Source: a virus
Taxonomy: Duplodnaviria; Caudoviricetes
Direction: 5' to 3' (one strand)
DNA: 62,845 nt
Virus record (IMG/VR): IMGVR_UViG_3300032236_000207
Location: 1 to 62,845 of that record
In this document: piece after piece, positions 121 to 62,845 of the stretch
How positions within the stretch are numbered: the first letter of the stretch is position 1
How the letters are laid out: every line of letters starts with the position of its first letter
Notes under the pieces: model-generated
What the model saw: the letters and a program-made list of their open reading frames with translations, nothing else
What the model was told of the DNA's origin: nothing
The model's database searches: none
Translations under genes and position numbers: made by a program

Positions 121-129
121 GAGTTAACA

Positions 130-6997: not shown

Positions 6998-7020
6998 CCC
7001 CGCTTCGGCGGGGATTTTTT
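6998..7020 (+). terminator. Rho-independent terminator between convergent operons
   Basis: CCCCGC-TTCG-GCGGGG followed by T tract. Confidence 0.85.
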
Positions 7021-39055: not shown

Positions 39056-39083
39056 AAAAAAGGGGGCTTGTGACCCCCTTTTT
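39056..39083 (-). terminator. Rho-independent terminator after the major capsid gene
   Basis: AAAAAGGGG-loop-CCCCTTTTTT immediately after the stop. Confidence 0.75.
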
Positions 39084-39084
39084 C

Positions 39085-47055: not shown

Positions 47056-47663
47056 TCTTGCTCTTTTGTAGACACGTCGTCGTCCACATGTTCATTTTCT
47101 GGCGTTTTCTGTACATATTCGTCCAGTTCGTCCAGCTCATCGACCAAATTTGGCTTGATATCTGTAACATCCGCGTTCATCAGGCGTTTTATGCGCTCCT
47201 TGATGCTGTTTTCTAGCGAACTAGACGTGGTGTGGTGGATTGTTATCTCGCTGCGCTCAGTAAAGAGGCCAATATCTGAATGTTTTCCAAGCAGCTCGAG
47301 CGCCTTGAGCTCAATTTTTGGGTCGCCGCTGTCTGCTAATGTTATAAGTTTGTTCGTTATGAAATTACGAGCTTGTAATTGGTCACTGAACGCCTGAAAG
47401 TCAAATTGTTTTATTAGTACAGACGCGGCTTTTGCCTGCGCTGATACAGATACTGTCTTAGGGGTGGAGGACTTTTCCGCTCCTGTTATTAACTTACCCG
47501 CTTGCTCGAGCGATTTGTCGTCGTAATCTAATGAACCATCGAGTTGCTCAATGAAATCTGCAGTGTTGACAGCAATAGCTACGCTATCCGCATGAGTCTT
47601 AGGTTGCTCATCGGACAGGTCAAACGGAATTGGATGCTCCGCAGTTGGCTCAATATTTAACAT
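47052..47663 (-). CDS. Putative terminase small subunit
   Basis: Directly upstream of TerL; LKALELLGK..GLF motif. Confidence 0.65.
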   Translation of the reverse strand: MLNIEPTAEHPIPFDLSDEQPKTHADSVAIAVNTADFIEQLDGSLDYDDKSLEQAGKLITGAEKSSTPKTVSVSAQAKAASVLIKQFDFQAFSDQLQARNFITNKLITLADSGDPKIELKALELLGKHSDIGLFTERSEITIHHTTSSSLENSIKERIKRLMNADVTDIKPNLVDELDELDEYVQKTPENEHVDDDVSTKEQE

Positions 47664-47687
47664 GTGCACTTCCAAAAAAGAAGGGAT

Positions 47688-47785
47688 GTTGGTGACGGTC
47701 TATTTGCACTTATGGGTTTCCCCAGAGTAATCCGGTGTACCAACCCTGATCCCGACCTTGCGGTCTTGTAGAGATTTTCACCAAC
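47688..47785 (-). ncRNA. Candidate structured RNA upstream of the terminase operon
   Basis: GUUGGUGA/UCACCAAC closing stem; two GNRA hairpins (GACC-GCAA-GGUC, UGGG-GAAA-CCCA). Confidence 0.45.
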
Positions 47786-47812
47786 GGGCCCGACTATATC
47801 AGAAAAATATAT

Positions 47813-48061
47813 AGGGGTGGGGGGGGTAGCAAAATAAAAAGTGACGGGGGGTGTTTCCTAGACTTGATACTTAAACTTGCCGATTGGATACTTAAAGGGG
47901 GTGGGGGGTTAACTCTGCGTTTTTTGGAAAAACGAAATCGAACGACATATTCCCGTAAATATACTACGGTGTTATATAAATCTTGGGACTCCTAATCGGG
48001 TGTGCAACACATAGTGTAGCGGGCCCCACCTCCCTTTGCTGGGTTTTCGGGGGCATGGGGG
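47813..48061. other. Non-coding G-tract region, candidate packaging start/genome end
   Basis: Several G4-G8 runs and a GATACTTAAA direct repeat between the divergent late and early blocks. Confidence 0.35.
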
Positions 48062-48126
48062 TCAATCGTGCTCGAATCTAACAAATGTTATGCCATCCCC
48101 CTACTTTATTTTTGTTCAAAGAACGC

Positions 48127-48155
48127 TTGCATTTTGTGGTGCGATTAGATATAAT
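48127..48155 (+). promoter_or_regulatory. Early sigma70 promoter
   Basis: TTGCAT-17 nt-TATAAT. Confidence 0.7.
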
Positions 48156-48234
48156 GAGAACATGCCAAGCAACAATGCTTTGCATACCTAACATAAGTTA
48201 GGTTTCATGTTAGTTCTTTTTACAGAGGTTTATT

Positions 48235-48756
48235 ATGGATACAGTTCACGTCGTTAGTCCCGCTTTCCCTATGACTGCAGTGGCGGGTGCAGTTGCTAAC
48301 TTGACCGAGTCTCGCACTCAACTGGTTAAGGGTATCGGCAAAATCGGTGCTTTGATATCGGGATATTCCCTAGCGTTAGACCAAGCGTTTGACTTGGTAG
48401 ATAACCAAGGGCAAACCACTACCAAGTGGTTCGACTTGAAGGGTGCACTAAAGAAGGGCATCAAGGGTGAGCGTGCTAACTTTGTGGCAGATATGACACA
48501 AGCGGGTTATGGTAAGTCTACCATTGACGTCTACTGGCAACGAGTCAAGGAAGCCTCGGGTTATGTGACTGCGGGTAACCGAGTCAAGGCTGGCGCTACT
48601 GATGTTGACGCGAAGACACTCGCTGAATTGAAGACTATGGTAAACCGTATCTTCAAAGCCGAAGAGGAAGGCGTGACATGTGACGCTAGCGATATCAAGC
48701 ACTTGCTGATTGACGCTTACACAGCACTGGGTGGCAACGATAGCGACTTAGGCTAA
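48235..48756 (+). CDS. Early hypothetical protein
   Basis: 173 aa, GAGG RBS, own promoter and downstream hairpin. Confidence 0.75.
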   Translation: MDTVHVVSPAFPMTAVAGAVANLTESRTQLVKGIGKIGALISGYSLALDQAFDLVDNQGQTTTKWFDLKGALKKGIKGERANFVADMTQAGYGKSTIDVYWQRVKEASGYVTAGNRVKAGATDVDAKTLAELKTMVNRIFKAEEEGVTCDASDIKHLLIDAYTALGGNDSDLG

Positions 48757-48763
48757 TCAACGG

Positions 48764-48781
48764 ACGGGGGGAAACCCCCGT
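48764..48781 (+). terminator. GAAA-loop hairpin (terminator or processing site)
   Basis: ACGGGGG-GAAA-CCCCCGT; the T tract comes only after the adjacent palindrome. Confidence 0.45.
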
Positions 48782-48815
48782 TCTAACAAATGTTAGTTTT
48801 TAATCGGAGAATGTT

Positions 48816-49019
48816 ATGAAACCCTCTTACAAGCATGATTGTGAAAAGTGCAAATTTGTCGGCAAAATCTTTCGTGCTATGAATTTGGAAGGCACAAAGA
48901 AAAAAGCGACTGATGTTTATCAGTCTTGCGAAGTAGGTGGAAGTCGTTATATCCTCCGTTGTTCTAGTCAAGGCTCGGACTACATCACTACCAATAATTT
49001 GGAGATGTATATCTGCTAA
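48816..49019 (+). CDS. Small hypothetical protein
   Basis: GGAG RBS; HDCEKC motif. Confidence 0.65.
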   Translation: MKPSYKHDCEKCKFVGKIFRAMNLEGTKKKATDVYQSCEVGGSRYILRCSSQGSDYITTNNLEMYIC

Positions 49020-49038
49020 CCCCTACTGACTTATCCAC

Positions 49039-49062
49039 AGCCCGCCTTGAGCGGGCTTTTTT
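49039..49062 (+). terminator. Rho-independent terminator
   Basis: AGCCCGC-loop-GCGGGCT followed by TTTTT. Confidence 0.8.
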
Positions 49063-49140
49063 GCGTCTGATGACACCTAACAAATGTTAGCGTACCACTA
49101 AGTTATTTTTGTTCAAAGAAATTTAGCCCGAATTTTTAGA

Positions 49141-49238
49141 ATGCCAGTTCTCTGGGCGGCGTTAGGGTTGAAGTTTGAGATTGTCATCGCAGGGCATAGT
49201 TTGGCGACAATCTTTTAGGATGCCAGTTCTCTGGGCGG
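49141..49238 (+). repeat. 19-bp direct repeat ATGCCAGTTCTCTGGGCGG, two copies
   Basis: 49141-49159 and 49220-49238, both preceded by TTTTAGR. Confidence 0.85.
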
Positions 49239-49614
49239 GTTTAGGCTCGAACTAACAAATGTTATGCTTTGGGCAGGTAATGTTACGCAATGTTACGTGA
49301 CCCCTCCCCGCAAACCCGCATGAAACCTAGATTGTTATATGTTATATTGTTACACGACATATATAGCAGTCCACCAAAATGGATTTGGTCATCAAGGTCA
49401 GCAAGTGCAATTCATACCACTCAAACTCATTTTGGTGGGATATATATATATTCTCATAACATTATAACTTTATAACAATTAGTCATTTTTTGGCGTGGTT
49501 AAGCCATTTCCTTTGTTACACTTTATTTCCAAAACCCGTAACAATACCCTATTTTCATAACATCCCACTAACAAAGAAACATAACAATCCTCACTCATGC
49601 TCCGTCCTAAAAAT

Positions 49615-49643
49615 TTGACAAATCTGTAAAATTGTGGTATAAT
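49615..49643 (+). promoter_or_regulatory. Consensus early sigma70 promoter
   Basis: TTGACA-17 nt-TATAAT with extended TG. Confidence 0.88.
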
Positions 49644-49744
49644 AAGGTATGGAAATCAAAATAAAACCACAAAACCTAACAACTGTTAGGAAATGTAACA
49701 ACCCGAAGGAGAGCACATCATGCGCCCAAGCACGCCCTAAATAT

Positions 49745-49773
49745 TTGACAAATCTGTAAAATTGTGGTATAAT
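49745..49773 (+). promoter_or_regulatory. Consensus early sigma70 promoter (identical duplicate)
   Basis: Same 29-mer as 49615. Confidence 0.88.
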
Positions 49774-49859
49774 ATAACATGGGTTCGGGAGTTTTTCTCA
49801 GCCCATTCCAAATCTAACAAATGTTAGTTTTTCAACCCTTCAACCATACAAAGGTTTTT

Positions 49860-50057
49860 ATGTCCTCAGATTCACGCATCTACTTCATGCTTATGACAAT
49901 AATCGCAACTGCCTTTATTGTGTTCGGTTTTACTGGCGATGGTTACATCCACAACATTGCGCTAATCCTTGGTGGTCTCTACTTTGGTCACTTGATTACC
50001 GAAGCCCTCAACTATGACGAGTCAGACAAACTCGCAGACAGCCACTTGGAGGTATAA
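49860..50057 (+). CDS. Small two-TM membrane protein
   Basis: Two hydrophobic segments; stop lies in a palindrome (alternative start 49821). Confidence 0.6.
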   Translation: MSSDSRIYFMLMTIIATAFIVFGFTGDGYIHNIALILGGLYFGHLITEALNYDESDKLADSHLEV

Positions 50058-50060
50058 CAA

Positions 50061-50291
50061 ATGTTAGATAACGACTGGAAAGAATGTATCGACTGCGGTG
50101 ATGATGTTCACATCTCCCGTTGGTCTCTTGGCTACCGAGTGTGCCTCTTCTGCGGTGAAGACCGAGCCGTCGCAGAGCGTAGTTCATGGTGCATTGTGCA
50201 AGAGTACGGCAAGGGTAACTATCAGTATATTACCCCTACTAGCGCAACCACAACACTCAAGCAGACTAACCAAAAAGAACTGAGAGGGTAA
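50061..50291 (+). CDS. Small zinc-finger-like protein
   Basis: CIDCG..CLFCG; start lies in a palindrome. Confidence 0.7.
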   Translation: MLDNDWKECIDCGDDVHISRWSLGYRVCLFCGEDRAVAERSSWCIVQEYGKGNYQYITPTSATTTLKQTNQKELRG

Positions 50292-50295
50292 GGGT

Positions 50296-50457
50296 ATGAA
50301 AAAATTTAATGTGACTGTGGTGTTTTCTTACATCGACACCATCGAGGTGGAGGCTGAGAACAGAGAGGATGCCAAGGCTATGGCGTTTGACTTGTTCGAC
50401 GAGGAGCGCATGGTGCGCTGTGATGGTGAAGTGTTAGAAGTTGAAGAGGAGGCATAA
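50296..50457 (+). CDS. Small acidic protein (DpnD/PcfM-like pattern; not in ORF track)
   Basis: MKKFNVTV..IEVEAENREDA; stop lies in a palindrome. Confidence 0.55.
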   Translation: MKKFNVTVVFSYIDTIEVEAENREDAKAMAFDLFDEERMVRCDGEVLEVEEEA

Positions 50458-50460
50458 CAA

Positions 50461-50643
50461 ATGTTAGAAATTACATACACCGATATGTTCTTGTTCGCAT
50501 GGGCAAGCGTGATGACTGCCCTGTATTTCAAGGCACGACACGAGGAGCGCATGGTCAAAGTTGTGTTCATGCACCTTATAGAGAACCCCGAAGCCCGAGA
50601 GCAGATGATTGCCCAGTATGAAAAGACAAGGAGCGAAGCATGA
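50461..50643 (+). CDS. Small hypothetical protein
   Basis: GGAGG RBS; start lies in a palindrome. Confidence 0.6.
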   Translation: MLEITYTDMFLFAWASVMTALYFKARHEERMVKVVFMHLIENPEAREQMIAQYEKTRSEA

Positions 50644-50831
50644 ACGACAAAGATATCCAAGACGCAACCCGCCTAGTTCAGTATGCGGAGTTAGACATAG
50701 CGAAATACCTACAAAGCCCTGCCGACTTCATGGTTGTGGAGTGGCTTGAGGGTGTGCAACAAGCCCTGACCGACGCATTACAAATGTTAGGTTCGAACCC
50801 AATCCCTTTGTTGGAGAGCGATGATGAGTAA
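50640..50831 (+). CDS. Small hypothetical protein
   Basis: AAGGAG RBS, ATGA overlap. Confidence 0.6.
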   Translation: MNDKDIQDATRLVQYAELDIAKYLQSPADFMVVEWLEGVQQALTDALQMLGSNPIPLLESDDE

Positions 50832-51009
50832 AGACCGAAAGATAGCAGAGTTGGAGGCCACGATTAGGTCACTGCTCAAAGCCATCGACGGGTACAAGCG
50901 AGACCTCACATACGAAACAAACTGGAGGCTCATGTCCGCATGTATAAGTGCGAAGGAAGTTTTAAACAAACGAGAGGTAACAAATGTTAGAAATCGTAGT
51001 ACGAATTAA
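50821..51009 (+). CDS. Small hypothetical protein
   Basis: GGAG RBS. Confidence 0.5.
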   Translation: MMSKDRKIAELEATIRSLLKAIDGYKRDLTYETNWRLMSACISAKEVLNKREVTNVRNRSTN

Positions 51010-51175
51010 GAATGTATACGGAGTGGACAAGGTTTACCCAGTCTCTCCCAATGCTCACCTATTTGCCGACATTGCAGGCACAACCACGCTCAGACCATCC
51101 GACCTCAAGGCAATCCAAGAACTAGGGTATCGGGTAATCGTAGAGCAACCCGTATGGCAATCGGTGGAGGTATAA
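50984..51175 (+). CDS. Small hypothetical protein
   Basis: KNVYG..YPV..FADIAGTTTL; start and stop both lie in palindromes. Confidence 0.65.
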   Translation: MLEIVVRIKNVYGVDKVYPVSPNAHLFADIAGTTTLRPSDLKAIQELGYRVIVEQPVWQSVEV

Positions 51176-51177
51176 CA

Positions 51178-51669
51178 ATGTTAGATGACACAACCAACCT
51201 CACACCTGAGCAGAAACTAAAACTGCTCATTGCCAACCGACCTTGGGAAACCGAGCCCAACAGCGCAAAGTGGGAAGACAAACTCACGGGATACAAGTGC
51301 CGAATTATGCGACACGGCGACCTCGGTCACCTCTGTGGGTATGTGGGAATACCTAAGACGCACACGCTATACGGCAAGCACTACTCAGATGACGAGGTGG
51401 CAGACATTCGAATTCACGGTGGGCTGACGTTCTCAGAGGCAGATGAAGATGACAAAGACACATGGTGGTTCGGGTTCGACTGCTCACACATGGGAGACCT
51501 GAGCCCAAAACTACTCATGGTGCTCGTGGAGAAGGACAGATACAGGTTCGACCGAACCGAGCAATACCGCACATGGGACTATGTGGAGAACGAAGTCCGT
51601 GAGTTGGTGCGCCAACTGCGAGACGAGGATTCCCTAGCAAATCAAATACCAAACTTTAGGAGACCCTAA
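51178..51669 (+). CDS. Conserved phage hypothetical protein
   Basis: GHLCGYVG..HGGLTF..WFGFDCSH; start and stop both lie in palindromes. Confidence 0.75.
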   Translation: MLDDTTNLTPEQKLKLLIANRPWETEPNSAKWEDKLTGYKCRIMRHGDLGHLCGYVGIPKTHTLYGKHYSDDEVADIRIHGGLTFSEADEDDKDTWWFGFDCSHMGDLSPKLLMVLVEKDRYRFDRTEQYRTWDYVENEVRELVRQLRDEDSLANQIPNFRRP

Positions 51670-51672
51670 CAA

Positions 51673-51915
51673 ATGTTAGATAAAGAAGCACAGCAAGCCT
51701 TGGTTGCATTGATGCAGACCAAGCAGAACTTGGAAGACCAAGTATTGAAGTCAATGCGTAGCCCTGACCTGACAACCGAGCAACTCATAAAACTACGCAA
51801 GAAGTATCTAGGGTTCTTAGAGAAGTTGCAAGAGGTTGAGGATGAACTCCAAGCACACGAGCGGGGCACACCCGAGGAATGGATAGCCATGTGGAAGGGG
51901 CAGAAAGATGAGTGA
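51673..51915 (+). CDS. Coiled-coil hypothetical protein
   Basis: AGGAG RBS; start lies in a palindrome. Confidence 0.6.
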   Translation: MLDKEAQQALVALMQTKQNLEDQVLKSMRSPDLTTEQLIKLRKKYLGFLEKLQEVEDELQAHERGTPEEWIAMWKGQKDE

Positions 51916-52123
51916 AGAAGCAGAGAAGCAAGAGCCTGAGTCTGGATTTTTTAGTCGTGAAGCAATGAAAGCCCATAGCGATTTTCATCCACAACAACGC
52001 CCTTGGGTTGGGCTGACGGATGAGGAAATGCTTGAGTGCAATATGGATGGTGACATCATGATTGACCGAGAAACAGCCAAACGAAATGTCGAAGCCAAGT
52101 TGAAGGAGAAAAATTATGACTAG
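51908..52123 (+). CDS. Small hypothetical protein
   Basis: WVGLTDEE...EAKLKEKN pattern. Confidence 0.6.
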   Translation: MSEEAEKQEPESGFFSREAMKAHSDFHPQQRPWVGLTDEEMLECNMDGDIMIDRETAKRNVEAKLKEKNYD

Positions 52124-52271
52124 GTATTACGTCACAGGATGGAGTGCCCGATTCGGGAATTGGCACGCCGAGGTATTCGAGTGCAAGAGTATGGAGTTTG
52201 CGAAGAAGCGATTCTTGGCGAGTTACCCCACGCTCAAGCAGATAAAAGTCTACCCGCTACGGGACAACTAA
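52116..52271 (+). CDS. Small hypothetical protein (not in ORF track)
   Basis: AAGGAG RBS; 51 aa. Confidence 0.5.
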   Translation: MTRYYVTGWSARFGNWHAEVFECKSMEFAKKRFLASYPTLKQIKVYPLRDN

Positions 52272-52299
52272 AACCTAACAAATGTTAGAAAGGTAAATT

Positions 52300-53319
52300 A
52301 TGGGATACGCAACAGTAATGAATGTGCCACGGGTAACAACCTACACCGAGGCAAAGAACCTACACGACAGCATCAAGCCGATTCGTGGGCGAGACCCCGA
52401 GGTGCGACCCTTGGGTAACCGACGCGATGCCGACTCGTATTGGGTACGCATGGATGGGGACGACGTAGTGTTCATGCTCTACAAATCCCCCGTGATTACA
52501 TACAAGCCTGACGGGGCGGTGGTACTCACACCTGATACATATAGCACAGTATCTACACACCAATTCTTTCACAGGGTTCTTGGGGTGGGGGCAAATGCGT
52601 CTAGACAGCACTCCGTAATCACGCTCGGGGACAAACGCTACACGATTCGTGGCAAGGACAAACTCACGCTCAGACAAGTGGATGGGAACTGGTCTTGCGT
52701 CGAGGGGGCGAAGGCGCAGTTCGCGTGGCATTTGGACAGGCGAGAAGCAACAAATGTTAGGTCTCGCTACAAAGAATTTGTCACCTACTTCAAAGGCATG
52801 GTGGCTTTACGCACCGAGGACTTCACGCACCACTACGGTAATACGCACTACAAGGGAATTGCCGTGTCTCTGAATGAGTTACAAAATGCGTTTGGTGTGG
52901 AGACTATCGAAAACGAGAACCCATTCTTGCACTCACGAAATGACCCTGATTCAATCATTGGCAACATGCGGTGGATACAAGACTTGCCACAACGCCATTA
53001 CAACTATGGCACGCAGAGAGCGGATGAGTATGGGGCGGGCATAGTGAATTTTCTAGACCTGATTAGGAGCGACCAACCTGAGGACACCAAGACCACGAAC
53101 TTCTACAAGGGTGCGTTGGCGGTGCTGATGAGCGGTGACCGCCTATATCTACGAGGACAAGACGATAACACCTACATCGTTAAGGCTACGCCGATAGTGA
53201 AAGCCTTGGACACCGTGTTACTCAAAGCCCATGCGAGTCAGGTATTGGTGCGCAAAGAGTTACCGATTGGTTCGGTGTCCAAAGGGGCATACGACAGGTG
53301 GTTACCTGAGAACACCTAA
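52300..53319 (+). CDS. Hypothetical protein
   Basis: 339 aa, flanked by palindromes on both sides. Confidence 0.75.
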   Translation: MGYATVMNVPRVTTYTEAKNLHDSIKPIRGRDPEVRPLGNRRDADSYWVRMDGDDVVFMLYKSPVITYKPDGAVVLTPDTYSTVSTHQFFHRVLGVGANASRQHSVITLGDKRYTIRGKDKLTLRQVDGNWSCVEGAKAQFAWHLDRREATNVRSRYKEFVTYFKGMVALRTEDFTHHYGNTHYKGIAVSLNELQNAFGVETIENENPFLHSRNDPDSIIGNMRWIQDLPQRHYNYGTQRADEYGAGIVNFLDLIRSDQPEDTKTTNFYKGALAVLMSGDRLYLRGQDDNTYIVKATPIVKALDTVLLKAHASQVLVRKELPIGSVSKGAYDRWLPENT

Positions 53320-53356
53320 CAAATGTTAGGTGTAGGAGATGAGTGTGCCTAAATAT

Positions 53357-53385
53357 TTGACAAATACCTTATTTTGTGGTATAAT
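53357..53385 (+). promoter_or_regulatory. Consensus early sigma70 promoter
   Basis: TTGACA-17 nt-TATAAT; shares CCTAAATATTTGACAAAT and TTGTGGTATAAT with 49745. Confidence 0.88.
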
Positions 53386-53467
53386 TAAATGGTAGGCAAA
53401 AAAGTATTTTGTGTTAGTTTTTTCAACCAAATCCTAACAACTGTTAGGTATATCAGAGGAGTTAGAT

Positions 53468-54532
53468 ATGTCAGAAGTTAATTTCGGTAAGACCATTACC
53501 TTGAAGCAAGCATCCAATTTGATTCGCACGAACCCCACAACTCGGTTCTTATTGCGAGGTGAACCCGGAATTGGAAAGTCTTCCCTGTTGGAGAGTATTG
53601 CTAACGCATTGGGTTATGACCACGCATACATTGACGTGCCTAACCTAGACCTTGGCGATATTGCGATGCCCGTGATTGACCACGAGACCAAGACAACTAG
53701 GTATTACCCTAATGCTCGGTTCAAATTGCATGAGAAGAAACCCATCGTCATCATGCTAGACGAGTATACGAAGGGCGCAGACCCAGTTAAGAACATGCTC
53801 CATCCCATGCTCGAGAAGGCGAACCCACGACTCGGTGACATCTCTTTGCATGAGCAGAACATTGTGTTCATGACGGGTAATCTATCGACAGACGGGGTGG
53901 GTGACTCACTCAAGGCGCACTCTATGAATCGTGTGGTATCTGTAACTATCCAAAAGCCTGATGCAGAACAGTGGATTGAATGGGCTATCGGCAAGAGTAT
54001 CGAGCCTGAGGTGATTGCTTGGGTGAATCGTTTCCCACAAGTCTTGGCAAGTTACACGGACGGTGGACAGGCGGATAACCCGTATATCTTTAATCCTAAG
54101 AAGCCTATGACTGCGTTCGTATCTCCACGCTCACTCGAGACGGCCTCTAACATTGTTAGGTCTCGCAAAGAGAATGATGCCGACTCAGTAATCGCGGCTT
54201 TGACTGGTGCTATTGGCGAGTCAGGTGCAAGAGATATGCAAGCGTATATCGAATTCTCAGACCAACTGCCAACATGGGAAGCGACCATCAAAGACCCTAA
54301 GAATACCAAGATACCTACAAGTGCAGGTGCTTGTGCGATTGTGGTGTTCGGTGCGATTGCCCGTGTGGAGAAGGACACCATTGATGCGTTCATGGAATAT
54401 CTCGAGCGATTCGATGCCGAGTGGCAAGCCGTGTTCGCTATCAACATAGCGAAGTCACAAGCCAAGCAGAGCATTGCGTTTAGTGCGAAAGCCTTTACTG
54501 CATGGGTTGCTAAGAACCAAGACTTACTCTAA
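53468..54532 (+). CDS. MoxR-like AAA+ ATPase
   Basis: GEPGIGKS Walker A, IMLDE Walker B, TGN sensor 1, SPRS sensor 2. Confidence 0.85.
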   Translation: MSEVNFGKTITLKQASNLIRTNPTTRFLLRGEPGIGKSSLLESIANALGYDHAYIDVPNLDLGDIAMPVIDHETKTTRYYPNARFKLHEKKPIVIMLDEYTKGADPVKNMLHPMLEKANPRLGDISLHEQNIVFMTGNLSTDGVGDSLKAHSMNRVVSVTIQKPDAEQWIEWAIGKSIEPEVIAWVNRFPQVLASYTDGGQADNPYIFNPKKPMTAFVSPRSLETASNIVRSRKENDADSVIAALTGAIGESGARDMQAYIEFSDQLPTWEATIKDPKNTKIPTSAGACAIVVFGAIARVEKDTIDAFMEYLERFDAEWQAVFAINIAKSQAKQSIAFSAKAFTAWVAKNQDLL

Positions 54533-54542
54533 GAATTCTTAG

Positions 54543-54758
54543 ATGCTAACTACATCACAGAGTAATGGCACTCGTGCCCACCTTGGGCACAGGTATTGGG
54601 TGCAATGGGTAACCGCCACCAACCGAGACAAGGAGATGGTGGTGCTTGGCTACTGCGTTCGTGATATGGACAAGTTCGACAAGAACATTGTGTTCGAGCA
54701 CGAGAGCAAGATTGTGTGCGACAAGATTGCAGGTTTACTTAACGAAGGAGAGAGGTAA
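54543..54758 (+). CDS. Small hypothetical protein
   Basis: 71 aa, bounded by palindromes. Confidence 0.5.
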   Translation: MLTTSQSNGTRAHLGHRYWVQWVTATNRDKEMVVLGYCVRDMDKFDKNIVFEHESKIVCDKIAGLLNEGER

Positions 54759-54761
54759 CAA

Positions 54762-55982: not shown

Positions 55983-55985
55983 CAA

Positions 55986-56219
55986 ATGTTAGGAGTGAGT
56001 ATGGCAGTAATAGACCCAGTGGAATGGTTTCAGATACGACACCCCACGCAGTATTGGGGAGACCCTTTCACTCATGGGATTGTCGAGGACAAGGGGACAG
56101 GTGAGTGGGTAGTGGTGAAGAAAGAAATGCTTGGCGATTCACTGACAAAGATATCAGAGATAGCCCGAGCACCGACCCGTGAAGGGGCGATTGGATTTTT
56201 AAAACTTATAAGGGGATGA
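55986..56219 (+). CDS. Small hypothetical protein
   Basis: Start at 55986 (palindrome) or 56001 (AGGAG RBS). Confidence 0.55.
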   Translation: MLGVSMAVIDPVEWFQIRHPTQYWGDPFTHGIVEDKGTGEWVVVKKEMLGDSLTKISEIARAPTREGAIGFLKLIRG

Positions 56220-56343
56220 TGATGAGTTCAGATTTATTAGATGAGTACTGCATGCAAGAGTACGGGCACACCGATTGGGAAATGTCGTGGGATGAGGACG
56301 GCAACTTGATTGTGAAGTTTTATGAAAACCAAAGGGAGGAAGT

Positions 56344-57198
56344 ATGAGTATTAGTTCATCAGCGTTGTTAGTGGAGTTGAATATCAGCGTATGGCCTGCG
56401 TCTAAGTTAGACAGAGAAATAACGGACAAGGTCAATACAGATGCGTCAGCAGTCAGAGGTGCGAGTCAGACCAAGAAGAATCTATTTGCGGGGACTAGCC
56501 TACGCAAAGACATATCAGACTTCGCCGCGCGTGTTCGTCTGTATCACAACAAGCACACATTACCTTGGGCAGACAAGGGTGAGCGCATGTTGCCGACCAA
56601 GTTATTCATGGAATACAAGCAGACCATGAACGGGTTCGAGCAGACATTCAACATGATGTGCAACAACTTCTTTGTGGAGTATCCGCGTCTTGTCGCAGAA
56701 GCACCTACTAACCTAGGCACTATGTATAAGGCAGAGGACTATCCCGACCTAACAGATGTTAGGTTGAAGTTCGGTTTCAAGCGAACAGTAAAGCCCGTGC
56801 CTGAGGCGGGCGACTTCCGACTGGACATACCTGCGTATGACTTGGATGAGATGCGAGCCGAGTTCGAGAAGCAACACGAGACTAAGTTAGCCGAGGCTAT
56901 GCGTGAGCCGTGGGAGCGTCTGCATAAGATGTTAGTAGGAATGTCGGAGAAGTTGACTGATGTTGAGGGTGATGATTCCAAGAAGCGTTACCACGACACA
57001 CTTATCTCTAACCCCATAGAGTTGTGTGGACTGCTAACCAAACTGAATGTGACCAACGACCCCAAGTTGGAGGAAGCACGACGTCAGTTGGAGTTGACCA
57101 TGCTTGGCGCAGACATTGAGAGTATTAAAGAAGATGCACAGTCTCGCAGTGCACTCAAGTCCAAGGTAGATGCTATCTTGGGTAAGTTCGATTGGTAA
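56344..57198 (+). CDS. Conserved helical protein accompanying AAA/VWA modules (DUF3150-like, tentative)
   Basis: TLPW..G.R.LP, DYP, FPV-like KPVP motifs; GGAGG RBS. Confidence 0.6.
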   Translation: MSISSSALLVELNISVWPASKLDREITDKVNTDASAVRGASQTKKNLFAGTSLRKDISDFAARVRLYHNKHTLPWADKGERMLPTKLFMEYKQTMNGFEQTFNMMCNNFFVEYPRLVAEAPTNLGTMYKAEDYPDLTDVRLKFGFKRTVKPVPEAGDFRLDIPAYDLDEMRAEFEKQHETKLAEAMREPWERLHKMLVGMSEKLTDVEGDDSKKRYHDTLISNPIELCGLLTKLNVTNDPKLEEARRQLELTMLGADIESIKEDAQSRSALKSKVDAILGKFDW

Positions 57199-57224
57199 CT
57201 AAGAAATCTTAGAAAGGGAATGAT

Positions 57225-58091
57225 ATGAGTGAATCACAGGCAGTAAGTATGAATTTGTTTGCGTTGAGCAATGTTGAGTTGCACCCCGATGTATCCAAGA
57301 AATTGGGTAATGAGACGATAGGCGACCCGCCTAACGATATGTGCAGATTGGTAATGCACTTGGCTATGGCAAACCCATTGTGGCGGTTTGTCGTTACCGA
57401 TACTATGGGAGACCATAGACCCGTAGGGTTCGGTGTGATTGATAGTGGCGAGGTGATTGGCAAGATTGGTAGGCAGTATTACCGAGGGGACTACAAACTC
57501 TCGCTAACCAACGACCGCATTAGCAATGCTAGAGAACGCACATCCTCATACCGCACGTCAGATGTGGACAAGGCTATCCTCATGGCGAAGAAGATGTTCT
57601 TTCGTCTCAAGCCCAACGAGCGTATCGAGAAGGCGTATGAGCAAGCCCACAAGGTGATGACTAACCAACTCTACGATAAGCAGAGGGAGCATCGCTATGC
57701 CGAGCGGGAGACCGAGAGTCTTGCGGTTAAGTTCATCATGGGAACTGGCTTTCCTTTGTTCTTGGGGTATGTAAACGGCCTGCCTGAACATGAGAAGAAG
57801 CCCATACTAGCGAAGATGGAGCAGGCCAAGAAGTTCAAGCAAGACATGATGACCATTGAAGCAATCAAGGATAGGTTCGGTGGTGAACACACAGCCCTAA
57901 TCATCAAAGATGAGGGTAAATACATGGTGAAGATTGGACAAGATGTTCAGATTTACGATGATAATACGCTCCCCGAATCCATGCGGGGTAAGTTGGGTAT
58001 GTTGAAGTTGGTTGAAGCCGAGCACTTCATATCTAGCGTGGGGTGTCGTATCAATGATGAGATATTCGTAGTATTAACAGAGGAGACCTAA
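57225..58091 (+). CDS. Hypothetical protein
   Basis: 288 aa; stop lies in a palindrome. Confidence 0.75.
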   Translation: MSESQAVSMNLFALSNVELHPDVSKKLGNETIGDPPNDMCRLVMHLAMANPLWRFVVTDTMGDHRPVGFGVIDSGEVIGKIGRQYYRGDYKLSLTNDRISNARERTSSYRTSDVDKAILMAKKMFFRLKPNERIEKAYEQAHKVMTNQLYDKQREHRYAERETESLAVKFIMGTGFPLFLGYVNGLPEHEKKPILAKMEQAKKFKQDMMTIEAIKDRFGGEHTALIIKDEGKYMVKIGQDVQIYDDNTLPESMRGKLGMLKLVEAEHFISSVGCRINDEIFVVLTEET

Positions 58092-58094
58092 CAA

Positions 58095-58295
58095 ATGTTA
58101 GAAGTAAAACTAGACAACCATCCGACCACAAGAATGTTTCCACGCACATTAGAAGAAGCGTATCCCAAAGATTACGTCAACAATTTCTTTGAGGGCCCGT
58201 TTTACAGTGCTCCACATATCAGCGAATACTCAGTCTTGCTTGCATTGATAGCAGTGTTCAGTATGTTGGGCTATGCAATGTGGAGGTATTTCTGA
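58095..58295 (+). CDS. Small membrane protein
   Basis: TTRMFPRTLEEA motif plus C-terminal TM helix; start lies in a palindrome. Confidence 0.65.
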   Translation: MLEVKLDNHPTTRMFPRTLEEAYPKDYVNNFFEGPFYSAPHISEYSVLLALIAVFSMLGYAMWRYF

Positions 58296-58395
58296 TGTTA
58301 GAAACAATCGCATGGATAGTATTTCTAATGGGGCTAGGCGCAGTCGTAGTGGTTGCCGTAGGACTAGCAATAGTTTATATAAGTAGGGAGGACAT

Positions 58396-58755
58396 ATGAA
58401 TGACTTTTTTTGGGGCGCAGGTATAAGCGCAGTAATTTGGACATTGATTAGTTTTGTTTGGGGGTTCGTGGAGGAACATAAGAAAGACAAGGCTAACAAA
58501 GTTAGGGAGAAGTTGGCGTACCACGGCACTGCACTGGTATCCCCACAAATATCCCCCAGTTTTGGCAAGGTAGAGCCACAAGTGCGGATTGGGATGATGA
58601 ACGCAATGAACGGCAGACTGCTAGAGGTTGCATCTACTACGCTAAACAGACACGGGGATAGAGACTATGTAGTCGAGCACTACATCATTGATGAGACCAA
58701 GCCATTGTCGGAGGAGATAGCGGTGGTGATGCTTATGAAGGGGATGAGTAAATGA
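58396..58755 (+). CDS. Membrane-anchored hypothetical protein
   Basis: GGAGG RBS, N-terminal TM helix. Confidence 0.65.
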   Translation: MNDFFWGAGISAVIWTLISFVWGFVEEHKKDKANKVREKLAYHGTALVSPQISPSFGKVEPQVRIGMMNAMNGRLLEVASTTLNRHGDRDYVVEHYIIDETKPLSEEIAVVMLMKGMSK

Positions 58756-58931
58756 AAGAGCACGAAATGATTTCTGCGATTACTCTGCGTGACTTCTTTG
58801 CGTCTCAGGCTATGCAGGGTGCTTTAGCAGGTATCGCTACTAGAGCGGAGGTTATTCGCTACTCAGAGTTAGCGGGACTAGCGTACGAAGTAGCGGACGC
58901 AATGATGGAAGCGAGAGATGAGGAAGCGTAG
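58752..58931 (+). CDS. Small conserved phage protein (not in ORF track)
   Basis: TLRDFFASQAMQG..AYEVADAMMEAR pattern. Confidence 0.65.
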   Translation: MKEHEMISAITLRDFFASQAMQGALAGIATRAEVIRYSELAGLAYEVADAMMEARDEEA

Positions 58932-59391
58932 CAAATACAGACCCAAGGGAGTTCTGCCCGACCCGATGACTTGGTTGTTGGCGGGTATGAAACCTTTCAA
59001 AGAAGTGCCTTTTAGCGTAGACCTACGTATCAAGAACCACGGTGCTATGGATGCGCTACGCAGAGGCATTGCTACCAAGGATGACATGGATGTTCTGATT
59101 GGTGCGTTCAACATGACCGAGGCATGTATCCGACTGCGACCTGAGTTGGGTGCGGACTGGGCAGATGAAATCAAGGCGGGGCAAGATGCGCTCTATGCAG
59201 TTTCTAAGCGAGGTGCAAATAGTATGCGGTTCATTCTCAAGGCGAGTGAACTTGTGGCTATGAACCTAGTCATGGAACTACATGATGTGCAACTAGACCA
59301 AACAACAGTAAGCGACTTGGAGAAGGCTATGGATATTGTGAAAGAAGAACATAGATTGAAGAAGATGCGACCAGTCAAGGAGAAGGTATGA
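58918..59391 (+). CDS. Hypothetical protein
   Basis: MRKRSKYRPK start, 157 aa. Confidence 0.7.
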   Translation: MRKRSKYRPKGVLPDPMTWLLAGMKPFKEVPFSVDLRIKNHGAMDALRRGIATKDDMDVLIGAFNMTEACIRLRPELGADWADEIKAGQDALYAVSKRGANSMRFILKASELVAMNLVMELHDVQLDQTTVSDLEKAMDIVKEEHRLKKMRPVKEKV

Positions 59392-59651
59392 CACAAGATG
59401 AAATCATTGAGATGGCTAGAGAGTCTGGGTTAGAAACACAAGATGGGTTTTCTGAATCTGTTTTTTACTTTGCCAAACTGGTAGCAGACAAAAGAGTTGA
59501 AGGCATGGTAGTAATGACCCCTGACGAATTCAAAAGCGTATGGGATAAAGCGCAAGCAGAAGAGCGTGAGGCGTGTGCGCTTATTGGCGATGGCTATCAC
59601 GATGAAGAAGCAAACTGTGGTGATTTAATCAGAGCAAGGGGACAAGCATGA
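59388..59651 (+). CDS. Small hypothetical protein (paralog A)
   Basis: MTQDEIIEMAR..FAKLVA..ERE..IRARG. Confidence 0.7.
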   Translation: MTQDEIIEMARESGLETQDGFSESVFYFAKLVADKRVEGMVVMTPDEFKSVWDKAQAEEREACALIGDGYHDEEANCGDLIRARGQA

Positions 59652-59923
59652 CACAAGATGAAATCATTGAGATGGCTAGACAGGCTGGTTTTGATGTCAA
59701 AGAATGGGGTGATGAAACATTGGTTCGTACCGTACACAGCAAGGGTTACTTTGTTGTCATCAATCAAAAACTTGAAGCCTTTGCCAAACTGGTAGCAGAG
59801 AAAGAGCGTGAGGAATGTGCCAAGATTATTTATGACTCTTGGGAATCAACAACAGCGGGTGAAGGCATACCCGAAGATTGGCTTTTGACTTTGGCAGAAC
59901 TAATCAAAGCAAGGGGAAACTAA
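59648..59923 (+). CDS. Small hypothetical protein (paralog B)
   Basis: First 33 nt identical to paralog A. Confidence 0.7.
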   Translation: MTQDEIIEMARQAGFDVKEWGDETLVRTVHSKGYFVVINQKLEAFAKLVAEKEREECAKIIYDSWESTTAGEGIPEDWLLTLAELIKARGN

Positions 59924-60222
59924 TGCAGTCAGTTCATTCAACAGGCTACATGGTGCGTAGCATATACAAAGGAACATATGAAAAAACAGGAAGAGATGAT
60001 GGAACAGGATACGTCTTGTATCGAACAAGAACCCTTGCACAACAACACATCGACAAGTATTGCGAAGGCAAAGCGTTCGTCGTCAAAGTCAGGGTTGCGA
60101 TTACGCCGACTGAGTCAAGCCGAAATGAACGCGCATTGGCCATTCACAAGGCTAGACCCAAAACTATTTCCGAAAAACTTAAAAACAACTTCTTTCCCTA
60201 CTGAAGAAGAGGAAGCACTACT

Positions 60223-60423
60223 ATGACAACAGGAATTGAAGAACTTAAACCAATAACAAAACGCAAGGGGCGAGGCCTTGGTAAGAAACCTGCGCTTTTT
60301 TGCACGAGTTTGCGTCTACCAAAGGAGGTGATGGATTACTTCAACACTAACTTTCCGTATACAAAGCAAGCCAAGATGAGAGAAATTCTTACTGAATACA
60401 TTAACCAACAAACAAGGAGTTAA
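60223..60423 (+). CDS. Ribbon-helix-helix-like DNA-binding protein
   Basis: RGLGKKP basic arm then TSLRLPKEVMDYF..MREIL strand-helix-helix pattern. Confidence 0.55.
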   Translation: MTTGIEELKPITKRKGRGLGKKPALFCTSLRLPKEVMDYFNTNFPYTKQAKMREILTEYINQQTRS

Positions 60424-60424
60424 C

Positions 60425-60949
60425 ATGGTTACTAAAAAGAAACGCACAAGCAGAACTAAGACCGCACAGATTCGTGCTTACATAGCAGAGAATCCCGAAG
60501 CGACACCGAAGACCATTTCGGGGCTATACGGCATCCCGCTCAAGTCCGTGTATCAGATTACATATCAGATACGCAAAGAGAAGAAGCCCGTCATCGTCAC
60601 TGCAACACAGGCAGCCATCGCTAATAGGCTAGGGGTATCAACGCAGGAGTATGTCAAGAGAGTTTACGAATTGACGAGAGGGCGTGACCGACGCCACCCC
60701 GTTACAGGTAAGCGTCTCATGCAAGGCGCAGATATTGTGGCAACACATCACACCGACATGGTCAACCATCCTCCGCACTACAAGCAAGGGGGCATCGAGA
60801 CTATCGACTTCATCGAGGCGAAAGAGTTGGACTACAACCTTGGCAATGTTGTGAAATACATAACACGAGCCGACCACAAGGGCAACAAGTTGGAAGACTT
60901 GAAGAAGGCACAGTGGTATCTCAACCGAGCCATTGAAAAGTTAAACTGA
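60425..60949 (+). CDS. DUF3310/SaV-like protein with N-terminal HTH-like region
   Basis: DMVNHPPHY..IETIDFI..GNVVKYITRA..EDLKKAQWYL. Confidence 0.8.
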   Translation: MVTKKKRTSRTKTAQIRAYIAENPEATPKTISGLYGIPLKSVYQITYQIRKEKKPVIVTATQAAIANRLGVSTQEYVKRVYELTRGRDRRHPVTGKRLMQGADIVATHHTDMVNHPPHYKQGGIETIDFIEAKELDYNLGNVVKYITRADHKGNKLEDLKKAQWYLNRAIEKLN

Positions 60950-60985
60950 TACTAGGGGGTAACATAATTGGAGGATGACCTAGCC

Positions 60986-61086
60986 GATAGATGTGACGGT
61001 GTCTTTCTCAAGCAGAGTCCCCCTTAGTTGATTTGCTCTGCTTGAACCTTAAGCGTGACGGGGGGCACGCAATCTATCAGCCCCCC
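60986..61086 (+). ncRNA. Candidate pseudoknotted structured RNA
   Basis: GAUAGAU/AUCUAUC, UCAAGCAGAG/CUCUGCUUGA and GCGUG/CACGC stems; G6 loop complementary to downstream C6. Confidence 0.5.
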
Positions 61087-61113
61087 AACCTAACATTTGT
61101 TAGGGTAAGTCCT

Positions 61114-61136
61114 AGCCACCTTCGGGTGGCTTTTTT
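61114..61136 (+). terminator. Rho-independent terminator closing the early region
   Basis: AGCCACC-TTCG-GGTGGCT followed by TTTTT. Confidence 0.88.
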
Positions 61137-61146
61137 ACGTCCGTAG

Positions 61147-61174
61147 TTGACAAAGTCAAATGCTGTGCTATACT
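61147..61174 (+). promoter_or_regulatory. Sigma70-type promoter with TTGAC-N3-GTCAA palindrome
   Basis: TTGACA-16 nt-TATACT; near-identical to 2300. Confidence 0.65.
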
Positions 61175-61207
61175 GCCCTTCTGAAAATAAATTGGAGGGT
61201 TAGTGGT

Positions 61208-61561
61208 ATGACTTTTAATTTGCGCCCTATCGTTATACATGACGAAGATTGGCTTAACGAATGCCCCGACTGCGGTGGCAACAACATGCATCAGGCTGAT
61301 GTATCTGTTTATAACAGTGACGGGTTTGACATAGAGTTTGTCCAAAAAACCCAAGGAACGAAAAACGTGGGGAAGACTCGCGTTACTCACGTAATGGCAG
61401 ATGGAACTGTCACAACCACTCGCGTGCTACGTGAACATGCAAACAACCCAAGCCAAGACCGTGAAGGGTTACGCCTAAGTTTTTGGTGCGAGCATTGCGA
61501 CAGCAAACCCAACTTAGTCATATTCCAACATAAGGGCACAACCTTTATAGGTTGGGAATAA
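61208..61561 (+). CDS. Zinc-ribbon hypothetical protein
   Basis: CPDCGG..CEHC..QHKG; GGAGG RBS. Confidence 0.7.
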   Translation: MTFNLRPIVIHDEDWLNECPDCGGNNMHQADVSVYNSDGFDIEFVQKTQGTKNVGKTRVTHVMADGTVTTTRVLREHANNPSQDREGLRLSFWCEHCDSKPNLVIFQHKGTTFIGWE

Positions 61562-61564
61562 CGC

Positions 61565-61870
61565 ATGGCACAAACTCCTGAGGCTAAGGTCAAGGCCAAA
61601 ATCAAAGCAATCCTTAAAACACATGGTGTCTACTACGCTATGCCGATTGGCACAGGGTTGGGCAATAGTGGTGTGCCCGACTTTCTATGTTGCGTGCATG
61701 GATTTTTTGTGGCTATCGAAGCCAAGGCGGGTAAGGGCGAACCTACCGCACTGCAATACAAAAATCTCGGTGACGTAATCAAAGCGGGGGGCTACTCTTG
61801 CGTCATCAAAGAAAACAACCTTCACTTCCTTGAGCAGGTGATTGCTGAGTGCAAAGAAAGGGCAGAATGA
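61565..61870 (+). CDS. VRR-NUC domain nuclease (resolvase-like)
   Basis: TPE..GVPD..AIEAK..PTALQ motifs. Confidence 0.85.
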   Translation: MAQTPEAKVKAKIKAILKTHGVYYAMPIGTGLGNSGVPDFLCCVHGFFVAIEAKAGKGEPTALQYKNLGDVIKAGGYSCVIKENNLHFLEQVIAECKERAE

Positions 61871-61871
61871 A

Positions 61872-62114
61872 ATGCCCCTGACCCCGCAACAGATTCAAAA
61901 TCAAGTAATGAACGCACTGAATGATTCGTTCGCCAAGGTGTATGCAGACGTATACCAAACAAGGTATCACATGAAATACAACTACGGCAAATACAAAATT
62001 TACAAAAGCGAATACGACGAATACCTACAACGAAGAAGCACTACGACCCTAGCAAGCGGGCTAGACAAAGTGACAGCAGAAGGCATGATGAAACTACTGG
62101 AGGAACCAAAATGA
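61872..62114 (+). CDS. Hypothetical protein
   Basis: ORF in operon; ATGA overlap with the next gene. Confidence 0.5.
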   Translation: MPLTPQQIQNQVMNALNDSFAKVYADVYQTRYHMKYNYGKYKIYKSEYDEYLQRRSTTTLASGLDKVTAEGMMKLLEEPK

Positions 62115-62446
62115 ACGAAGACTTTAACGAAGGCGTGAAGATAGCCATAGCACGGATGGAGAGCAACCCCGAGGAATTTTTTGAGCCCACACCTGACGGC
62201 AAGTGGAGTTGGATATATAAAGCAGAAGTGCGTGAGGTGCTAACCGAGGAAGAGAAGGTAGCCGTGCACAGCGCACTCAAGAAGGTGCGTCGCTTGGAAA
62301 TTACACATAGGGCTATGAAAGCAGTGCTACCTGAGTTGGAAGAGTCATACACCCCACAACTATTGCAACCCTCAACAGGCAAGGACGGTAAATACAAATA
62401 CAGCACGCAGAACAGATACATCCCACCTTGGAAGGAACCAAAATGA
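62111..62446 (+). CDS. Hypothetical protein
   Basis: NEGVKIAIARMESNPEEF motif. Confidence 0.65.
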   Translation: MNEDFNEGVKIAIARMESNPEEFFEPTPDGKWSWIYKAEVREVLTEEEKVAVHSALKKVRRLEITHRAMKAVLPELEESYTPQLLQPSTGKDGKYKYSTQNRYIPPWKEPK

Positions 62447-62845
62447 ACGAAGGCGTAAAAGTTTTAATCGAGCGGATGAAGACCAACCCCGAAGACTTTC
62501 AGTTGGTGCAAGACAAGAAGTCGAAGTATGACTTGAAAGAGGGTAAGTTCTACTGGGTAAAACAAGCGGTGGAAAGTTATCTGACGGGCGAACAAACAAG
62601 TTTACATTTAATGCTACTTAAGCAACAAGATTTGGATGCACTAGTAGACGCATATAGAGATATGCACCAACAGCAATTTACCAACAAAGTGATGAACCAT
62701 TTATTTAAGGAAGAAGAGGTTGCACCCGAAGTAGCAGGCGGTTGGTTACCGCAAGGGGCGAGGACGCTACAAAACACAAATTGGACAGACCCACGGATAG
62801 CGTATCTAAGCCAACAACAGCAAGCACAAAACGCGTTATCAGGCC
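62443..62845 (+). CDS. Partial hypothetical protein, paralog of 62111 (3' truncated)
   Basis: MNEGVKVLIERMKTNPEDF; open to the window end. Confidence 0.6.
   Translation, partial: MNEGVKVLIERMKTNPEDFQLVQDKKSKYDLKEGKFYWVKQAVESYLTGEQTSLHLMLLKQQDLDALVDAYRDMHQQQFTNKVMNHLFKEEEVAPEVAGGWLPQGARTLQNTNWTDPRIAYLSQQQQAQNALSG

Follow-up and report, generated by a model that had tools for sequence, protein, structure and literature searches.

Restriction-site avoidance is concentrated in one arm of the virus genome examined here, IMG/VR record IMGVR_UViG_3300032236_000207 (Duplodnaviria; Caudoviricetes), whose entire length of 62,845 nt is the window of this analysis. Selection, acting mostly through synonymous changes, has removed many palindromes of 4-5 bp, among them GATC, AGCT and CCGG, from the early arm only. 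This depletion is genuine, and neither composition nor codon use accounts for it. The depleted zone is the early-gene arm of a podophage-like genome, diverging from the terminase and structural arm at about 47.7-47.8 kb. It is probably the first-exposed, leading DNA of the incoming genome, under position-dependent restriction selection as in the first-step-transfer DNA of T5 and the leading regions of T7-like phages.

Site loss in the early arm

The record is classed in IMG/VR as linear, and CheckV puts its completeness at 98%. Automated counts agree exactly with an earlier note on this DNA, in which a manual scan had found no GATC after 47748, no AGCT after 47577 and one remaining CCGG at 53565. 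GATC occurs 86 times in the window, AGCT 216 times and CCGG 84 times, with only the one CCGG beyond 47732. All three words are frequent in the first 47.7 kb, as that scan had also indicated, with 86, 216 and 83 sites in positions 1-47759. The uniform expectation of about 59 sites per word given at the time (15086/256) was too high; a maximal-order Markov model predicts 48.4 GATC, 40.2 AGCT and 27.4 CCGG sites in the zone, and order-2 simulations predict 47.3, 39.3 and 27.8. Codon- and amino-acid-preserving shuffles of 36 early open reading frames (ORFs; 500 shuffles per gene and 500 pooled, over 15,657 nt including positions 1-563) give per-gene and pooled expectations of 41.1±4.7 and 45.8±5.3 for GATC, 41.2 and 43.8 for AGCT, and 19.7 and 22.8 for CCGG. 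The earlier note had held that its claim would fall if such shuffles reproduced the depletion; for each of 13 words, none of 500 shuffles was as low as the observed count. Composition, strand skew and codon usage are ruled out as the cause by the Markov expectations together with these shuffles.

The deficit extends to further words, 2-30-fold for GTAC, CGCG, GGCC, ACGT, GCNGC, GGNCC, CCNGG and GGNNCC. Among 4-mers, the zone contains 15 GTAC sites against an expected 45-51, 11 CGCG against 46-48, 12 GGCC against 33 and 22 ACGT against 41-45. The degenerate words are similarly scarce, with GCNGC found 5 times against 22 expected, GGNCC 6 against 26, GGWCC 0 against 12, CCNGG 1 against 19-22 and GGNNCC 6 against 30-33. 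Because CATG (86 observed, 72-74 expected), CTAG (42, 39-40) and TGCA (70, 67-68) are normal in the zone, the deficit is not a general loss of palindromes; TCGA and TATA also occur at normal numbers.

At the opposite record end, where the zone probably continues (Table 1), the first CCGG, AGCT and GATC lie at 564, 630 and 826. This site-free stretch is too short for significance alone; its join with position 62845 is unproven, and there may be a small gap at 62845/1. Circular closure of the record was rejected, no end overlap of at least 12 nt being present, and an open frame across 62845/1 is out of register with its paralogue and carries no weight.

Other words are avoided throughout the genome. 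A genome-wide check of CCWGG, proposed in the earlier note, finds no site in the whole 62.8 kb, where about 94 are expected (16.5 in the zone by Markov-type estimates and 77 in the remainder; 13-15 in the zone under codon-preserving shuffles). Several 6-bp words are scarce or absent in the remainder, including RGATCY (3 observed, 36 expected), TGATCA (0, 16), GCATGC (0, 14.5), CCATGG (0, 12), GCTAGC (0, 12) and CAGCTG (2, 20). Twelve of the 64 palindromic hexamers are missing entirely from this 47-kb remainder. When pooled, 6-bp palindromes have observed-to-expected ratios of 0.59 outside the zone and 0.65 inside, and 4-bp palindromes have ratios of 0.81 and 0.62, a contrast that identifies the 4-5-bp words as the zone-specific component. 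Among relatives, CCWGG is missing from most genomes on both arms, with 0-1 sites per side in most loci. GATC is nearly absent from both arms in some lineages of the clade (L028, 2+2 sites; L151, 0+1; L158, 0+1), so its purge is regional in some lineages and genome-wide in others.

Purged words in relatives and the shared border

Judged by terL, IMG/VR contains at least 598 close relatives (77-94% identity), and judged by helicase at least 597; 80 loci of each kind were kept, and one relative of 47.7 kb and ten near-complete relatives were taken in full. Across these genomes, lineages have purged different words from orthologous early genes. In L007 (terL 94% identity), 9.3 kb of the early side contains 0 GATC, 4 AGCT, 0 CCGG, 0 GTAC and 1 ACGT, versus 25, 30, 19, 35 and 23 in 8.2 kb of the structural side. 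Other words are missing from the early side elsewhere, such as GTAC in L019 (0 versus 32 on the structural side) and ACGT in L034 (0 versus 31). L070 has 1 AGCT, 2 CCGG and 1 ACGT on its early side, L066 has 1 each of CGCG and GGCC, and L075 is depleted of GATC (0 versus 40) and GGCC (3 versus 26). Many lineages lose no word upstream of the presumed terS. The closest relative, G001, is free of GATC over 11.4 kb (28304-39660), with GTAC, CCGG and ACGT nearly absent and with the same border; its structural side has normal site numbers, and its GATC-free stretch is the part homologous to window positions 49144-61767.

The same differences run through individual genes. In the early genes encoding the AAA+ ATPase, the VWA-like protein and orf284, the window and L007 carry 0-1 of GATC, AGCT, CCGG and GTAC, and orthologues with 65-88% amino acid identity carry up to 14 GATC, 9 AGCT, 8 CCGG and 10 GTAC sites each. 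The words missing from these genes are GATC and GGCC in L075 and L091, GTAC and CGCG in L019, and AGCT, CCGG, ACGT and GGCC in L070. The genes for terL, portal and helicase retain sites in nearly all lineages, a few of which lack GATC genome-wide (L028, L081). When non-identical orthologues of the ATPase, VWA and orf284 genes (25, 23 and 24, respectively) are compared with the window, the encoded amino acids are identical at 177 of the relatives' 274 GATC sites, 190 of 285 AGCT sites, 88 of 155 CCGG sites and 200 of 323 GTAC sites. Since most of the relatives' sites fall at identical amino acids, site removal has been largely synonymous.

The start of site removal is a fixed border next to the terminase genes; from there it extends 3-16 kb along the early arm, a distance that depends on the lineage. 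When 11 near-complete genomes are rotated to the terS start and 22 words are examined, 228 genome-word pairs have at least 15 sites, and the longest site-free run is significant (P<0.05) in 68 of them. Nine of these 68 runs begin no more than 200 nt to either side of the terS start and continue along the early arm, against 0.43 expected by chance; none of the 68 ends at the border from the late side. The anchored runs are AGCT and GATC in G000 (15.9 kb each), AGCT (13.4 kb) and GTAC (2.9 kb) in G007, GATC in G010 (10.0 kb), G006 (4.1 kb) and G014 (3.7 kb), and GGNCC (7.6 kb) and GGCC (2.9 kb) in G011. A first-site test on 24 non-identical terL loci and 16 palindromic 4-mers (384 pairs) gives the same asymmetry: on the early side, 15 pairs have their first site at least 3 kb away from the border, versus 1 on the late side.

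The last sites of the window before the zone, at 47732-47778, fall in the 5' leader of the presumed terS. Just beyond it lies an array of G-rich boxes. One box, GGGGGGTGTT, is shared by 43 of 56 unique relatives and sits 23-382 nt past the presumed terS start, in a leader that is otherwise unconserved and unalignable. The array is a candidate packaging or end signal. IMG/VR contigs also tend to end here, with 12 of 53 truncated upstream flanks stopping 0-249 nt beyond the terS start. These contig ends vary in nucleotide and several fall within G homopolymers, so they demonstrate no physical end; their clustering is explained equally well by assembly or sequencing breaks, by hypervariability and by physical ends. 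The record itself has no end repeat. In metagenome run X1, the probable source of the record, a Logan contig covering 47607-49642 has a depth of 61 versus about 41 for its neighbours (1.5x), and a variant contig of depth 13 is found at 47743. A terminal repeat was rejected as a deduction from this depth excess, because the variant contig reveals a second strain; the excess may reflect either that strain or terminal redundancy. Runs X2, X5 and X7 contain diverged relatives only.

Deposited relatives are distant, with terL identities of 48-58% (DSL-LC04, 023Pt_psg01, pelagiphages HTVC027P and 023P, and Pag-Yong1), and a megablast of positions 47000-62845 against 50,697 phage records returned a single 39-nt match. 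No regional site pattern is found in DSL-LC04, 023Pt_psg01 or Pag-Yong1. Individual words are nonetheless missing from some of these genomes, CATG from the 59.8 kb of 023Pt_psg01 and GTAC from the 65 kb of Pag-Yong1. In DSL-LC04, one 3-kb bin (51-54 kb) within a 4.1-kb lectin-like tail gene contains no AGCT, CGCG, CCWGG or GGWCC and one GGCC, unlike the remainder of that genome. Pag-Yong1 has a G+C content of 69% despite its label as a Planktothrix phage, and its depositors' annotation places a SAM lyase four genes from the equivalent border.

Probable leading DNA and competing explanations

If the zone is leading DNA, host restriction enzymes would meet the early arm first and for longest. 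The leading genome end would lie at or near the G-box border, and DNA entry or accessibility would be polar and slow. Entry could take the T7 form, with host RNA polymerase reading inward from the consensus promoters, or the T5 form, with a pause. Restriction would be blunted before the replication and structural genes are exposed, whether by early products, by a co-injected protein or by end protection or repair, for which a weak Mu-Gam-like gene (2345-2794) might be considered. The selective cost of a site would then drop with distance from the leading end, and not to zero, given that CCWGG and many 6-bp palindromes are purged everywhere; protection of the remainder is accordingly read as graded, not complete. 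Polar, slow exposure of incoming DNA predicts just such a per-site restriction cost, high at the border and declining across 3-16 kb, and a race with the whole genome present at once would give no positional difference. The comparison of lineages also shows an ongoing purge, both lineage-specific and anchored. Headful packaging would reportedly abolish a leading-region effect (PMC12455610), so the pattern here predicts fixed ends. The earlier note had proposed that this segment enters first. Its position as the early arm, its consensus host-type promoters, the sharp border at about 47.75-47.8 kb and the lineage-specific runs anchored there all support a first-exposed segment, and the pattern agrees with published experiments on T5/BF23 and Murciavirus. 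Staged entry itself, and the genome end that the earlier note placed near 47.8-48.1 kb, stay predictions.

Several observations weigh against this interpretation. A PHROGs search with the 39 early ORFs yielded no known anti-restriction family, leaving the anti-restriction genes that the earlier note expected among them unsupported by homology. Four of the 11 near-complete genomes (G008, G012, G013, G015) have no anchored significant run. In G001, a 4.9-kb non-homologous cassette at the far end of the early arm, beside the helicase, has normal site numbers, and the purged unit could therefore be a gene module instead of a distance from an end. At helicase-anchored loci, most relatives have near-normal site numbers over the final 3-10 kb of the early arm, and a purge that usually stops short of the helicase weakens the whole early arm as its unit. 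The remainder of the genome avoids CCWGG (0 against 77) and many 6-mers, and hence is not simply protected. A strong terminator sits at 49039, 560 nt ahead of the main promoters, and misfits strictly transcription-pulled entry from the first promoter. What can be said of the physical ends comes from assembled contigs, the form in which all 20 listed sequencing runs were examined, and not from read starts. Finally, 6 of 10 relatives are classed as having direct terminal repeats, and their 87-127-nt overlaps at differing map positions are those of circular assemblies. Fixed ends would fit such overlaps, and so would headful packaging, under which the effect would be lost.

Two proteins may bear on protection. 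The family of the first early gene, first in position in the 21 relatives examined, evolves fast, with 15-63% identity in alignment. Its product has no Pfam or PHROG match, and the Atlas places it among unnamed viral clusters only, with DUF3102 at 0.85 as no more than a lead. A confident alignment-based model is all-alpha, with a predicted local distance difference test score (pLDDT) of 82, compared with a poor single-sequence fold (pLDDT 47); this fold has no Foldseek match at E<=0.001 in PDB or BFVD (best 0.6). The second is the giant 2126-aa protein of the virion module, which matches PHROG 10089 ('DarB-like antirestriction', E 1.4e-53) over residues 1352-2099 and Pfam LPD39 weakly, below the curated cutoff. 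Its C-terminal 750 residues resemble 'polyvalent' or DarB-like phage proteins (PHROG 10089, 11358, 30335), and its N-terminal 1200 residues have no match. The giant protein is possibly injected together with the DNA.

The giant protein suggests a different account of the asymmetry, in which the whole genome enters rapidly and co-injected virion proteins such as this one act in cis to shield late and replication DNA; the early arm, left naked for transcription, would then be alone in having to avoid sites. This is unlikely. The PHROG match is limited to the C-terminal third of a 4647-position profile that has no known function; moreover, shielding alone does not explain border-anchored runs of variable length. 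Dar protection is not known to extend beyond Type I systems. In its favour are the strength of the PHROG 10089 match, the weaker one to LPD39 and the lack of an anti-restriction gene among the 39 early ORFs. The cis protection of P1 by DarA and DarB, as cited in PMC12455610, provides a precedent.

Ancestry instead of entry position is invoked if the early arm is a mosaic module that arose in phages of hosts rich in 4-bp cutters, or passes between such phages, and was joined to a structural arm of different history. Such a history could account for the first ~1.5 kb of the arm, which lacks nucleotide similarity even to the closest relative, for the non-homologous, non-depleted cassette of G001, and for the accumulation of contig ends at the border, as at a mosaic joint. 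It is quite improbable, however, because conserved orthologues (ATPase, VWA, orf284) differ by lineage in the words purged, mostly synonymously, and because CCWGG is missing from both arms; it also passes the question back to the donor and its reason for purging only this module. Selection on RNA or regulation would act without DNA cleavage, with palindromes shunned in abundant early mRNAs (host RNase, dsRNA) or avoided where host methylation would disturb early expression. The block is indeed a single temporal class with a dense regulatory palindrome array and strong promoters, yet only a subset of palindromes is avoided, one that matches classical Type II sites and spares CATG, CTAG, TCGA and TATA. 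The avoided set changes between close lineages and takes in whole classes of degenerate DNA-type words (GCNGC, GGNCC, CCNGG, GGNNCC), which makes this account highly improbable.

Genome layout, known systems and significance

The early arm consists of small plus-strand ORFs arranged head to tail from 48.2 kb to the record end, about 36 of them in the zone (Table 1). The opposite arm runs on the minus strand from 47675 down to 7019 and encodes the presumed small terminase, large terminase, portal, structural and ejection proteins and the 2126-aa protein. Positions 1-6785 are again read from the plus strand and carry the HNH gene, the helicase, the Mu-Gam-like gene and a primase-type protein. 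N4-like phages (Schitoviridae) have a giant virion RNA polymerase at the end of a leftward late arm, whereas the giant protein in that position here matches LPD39 and DarB-like families, not a polymerase. Identifiable early products are MazG-like, AAA ATPase, DUF2201 metallopeptidase/VWA, DUF3310 and VRR-NUC-like nuclease proteins. No DNA methyltransferase (PF01555, PF00145, PF02086) and no family A polymerase is found in the genome. A T7-type single-subunit RNA polymerase gives no PF00940 match in the genome, a weak test in that control genomes cannot reveal this family, and no PHROG match among the scanned ORFs.

Table 1. Features of the depleted zone, its borders and the opposite arm
Feature	Position	Strand	Remarks
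Depleted zone	47752..62845		15,094 nt; 0 GATC, 0 AGCT, 1 CCGG; from word counts
Single CCGG of the zone	53565..53568		Within the AAA ATPase gene
Probable continuation of the zone at the opposite record end	1..563		Without GATC, AGCT or CCGG
5' leader of the gene upstream of terL	47688..47790	-	Last sites before the zone: CCGG 47732, GATC 47748
G-rich box array (GGGGTGGGG, GGGGGGTGTT, GGGGGTGGGGGG)	47814..47912	+	Zone start, between presumed terS and first early gene
Palindrome array CTAACA-NN-TGTTAG	48078..61103	+	23 of 24 genome-wide matches (<=2 mismatches)
First candidate early promoter	48127..48155	+	TTGCAT, 17 nt, TATAAT; found by eye; -35 match 3/6, unlisted by promoter scan
First early gene, 173 aa	48235..48756	+	Family in the same first position in 21 relatives
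Terminator-like hairpin and T run	49039..49057	+	Intrinsic type; ends the first small transcription unit
Two tandem 12/12 sigma-70 consensus promoters, extended -10	49615-49643, 49745-49773	+	Promoter scan
Third 12/12 sigma-70 promoter, extended -10	53357-53385	+	Promoter scan
AAA+ ATPase	53468..54532	+	Conserved in relatives, whose orthologues carry sites missing here
DUF2201 metallopeptidase-like / VWA-like protein	54762..55982	+	Pairs with the AAA+ ATPase
Terminator-like hairpin (61114-61131), then 11/12 promoter (61147-61174)	61114..61174	+	Palindrome array ends; depletion continues past
Small HNH endonuclease gene	434..712	+	Contains first CCGG (564) and AGCT (630); distal zone edge
Presumed small terminase (terS), adjoining terL	47052..47675	-	By position alone, without family match; anchor for comparisons
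Large terminase (terL)	45529..47055	-	Normal sites: GATC 2, AGCT 9, CCGG 6, GTAC 4
2126-aa virion-module protein	7019..13399	-	PHROG 10089 'DarB-like antirestriction' match

The CTAACA-NN-TGTTAG array lies nearly all in one orientation and marks the same temporal block as the zone. An ATG within the motif is the start codon of many genes (50061, 50461, 50984, 51673, 54762, 55986, 58095), and variants (CTAACATTGTTAG) are present in the leaders of relatives; the motif may be a translational or transcriptional operator of the early class. At 59388-59923 are two tandem paralogous small genes, both starting MTQDEIIEMAR, with a depth 3-7x that of their surroundings in four metagenome runs and with many alternative joints. 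This looks like a promiscuous or hypervariable cassette common to other genomes.

The kind of phenomenon, restriction-site avoidance limited to first-exposed DNA, is already known. T5, BF23 and other Tequintavirus phages are reported to be restricted only through sites in their first-step-transfer DNA (PMC10644984; 10.1101/866236), an observation for the T5 first segment credited to Davison and Brunel 1979 (cited second-hand from 10.1101/866236), and the protection of later-entering T5 DNA is described as still unexplained in mechanism (PMC10644984). The T5 segment resembles the zone: it houses small genes that are expressed first, and sites outside it are tolerated. The two differ in proportion, with the T5 segment at about 8% of a 122-kb siphovirus genome and the zone at about 24% of a 62.8-kb podophage-like one. 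The T5 segment is also part of a terminal repeat of ~10 kb that has an injection-stop region and the genes A1/A2, whereas no long terminal repeat is shown here; no named T5 pre-early family is matched, and at least 10 word classes are purged to a lineage-specific extent.

Murciavirus is reported to escape a Type I system if the motif is missing from its first-injected region, and its authors propose restriction-modification as a sub-genomic filter of phage genomes (PMC12455610). The leading regions of T7-like phages and Murciavirus, which that source describes as hypervariable, read by host polymerase from near-end promoters and decisive for restriction sensitivity (PMC12455610), are a parallel to the zone. 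The Murciavirus case concerns one Type I motif and is experimental, whereas many Type II-like palindromes of 4-5 bp are involved here and are known from sequence alone. Unlike T7-like phages, this genome has late genes on the opposite strand, and no single-subunit RNA polymerase was found by the weak test above. Whole-genome restriction-site avoidance in phages has been reported (PMC6286503); here, too, Type II palindromes are far below expectation and CCWGG is missing throughout, but avoidance of 4-bp words is limited to a single arm, where it is graded from a single border. The leading regions of conjugative plasmids are another parallel, the first-entering plasmid DNA being described as poor in restriction targets and rich in anti-defence genes (PMC12455610), although conjugative plasmids enter as single-stranded DNA and the virion DNA here is double-stranded. 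A non-exhaustive literature search, outside subscription journals and supplements, found no description of this clade or of graded 4-bp avoidance.

What is new here is the setting, an uncultured, abundant freshwater clade with a different layout and an unusually wide purge, which takes in at least 10 word classes and about 24% of the genome. The pattern lends natural-population support to a 2025 proposal drawn from one laboratory system, that restriction-modification selects sub-genomically and hardest on first-exposed DNA; the support spans dozens of diverged genomes and includes orthologous genes. It also predicts host restriction specificities, namely GATC, AGCT, CCGG, GTAC, CGCG, GGCC, ACGT, GCNGC, GGNCC and CCNGG, with CCWGG clade-wide. 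Of the host itself there are few clues: the genome has no tRNA genes, and related contigs carry conflicting metagenome-assembled genome (MAG) labels, with the closest contig (97% over 125 aa) in a Burkholderiales MAG.

Site-free runs provide a means to orient and stage the genome of a never-cultured phage, and the early arm yields a short list of genes in which to search for protection of later-entering DNA. More tentatively, and with considerable doubt, this abundant podophage clade (at least 598 IMG/VR matches) might deliver a leading segment, roughly one quarter of the genome, in a slow and polar way. The length of each site-free run would be a fossil record of the danger period of each kind of host nuclease, and the clade would then encode a broad Type II counter-measure. 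Candidates for such a counter-measure are the positionally fixed first-gene family and the conserved pair of AAA-ATPase and VWA-metallopeptidase. If the slow polar leading segment is true, the leading ends of uncultured phages and the restriction repertoires of their hosts would become readable from genome sequence.

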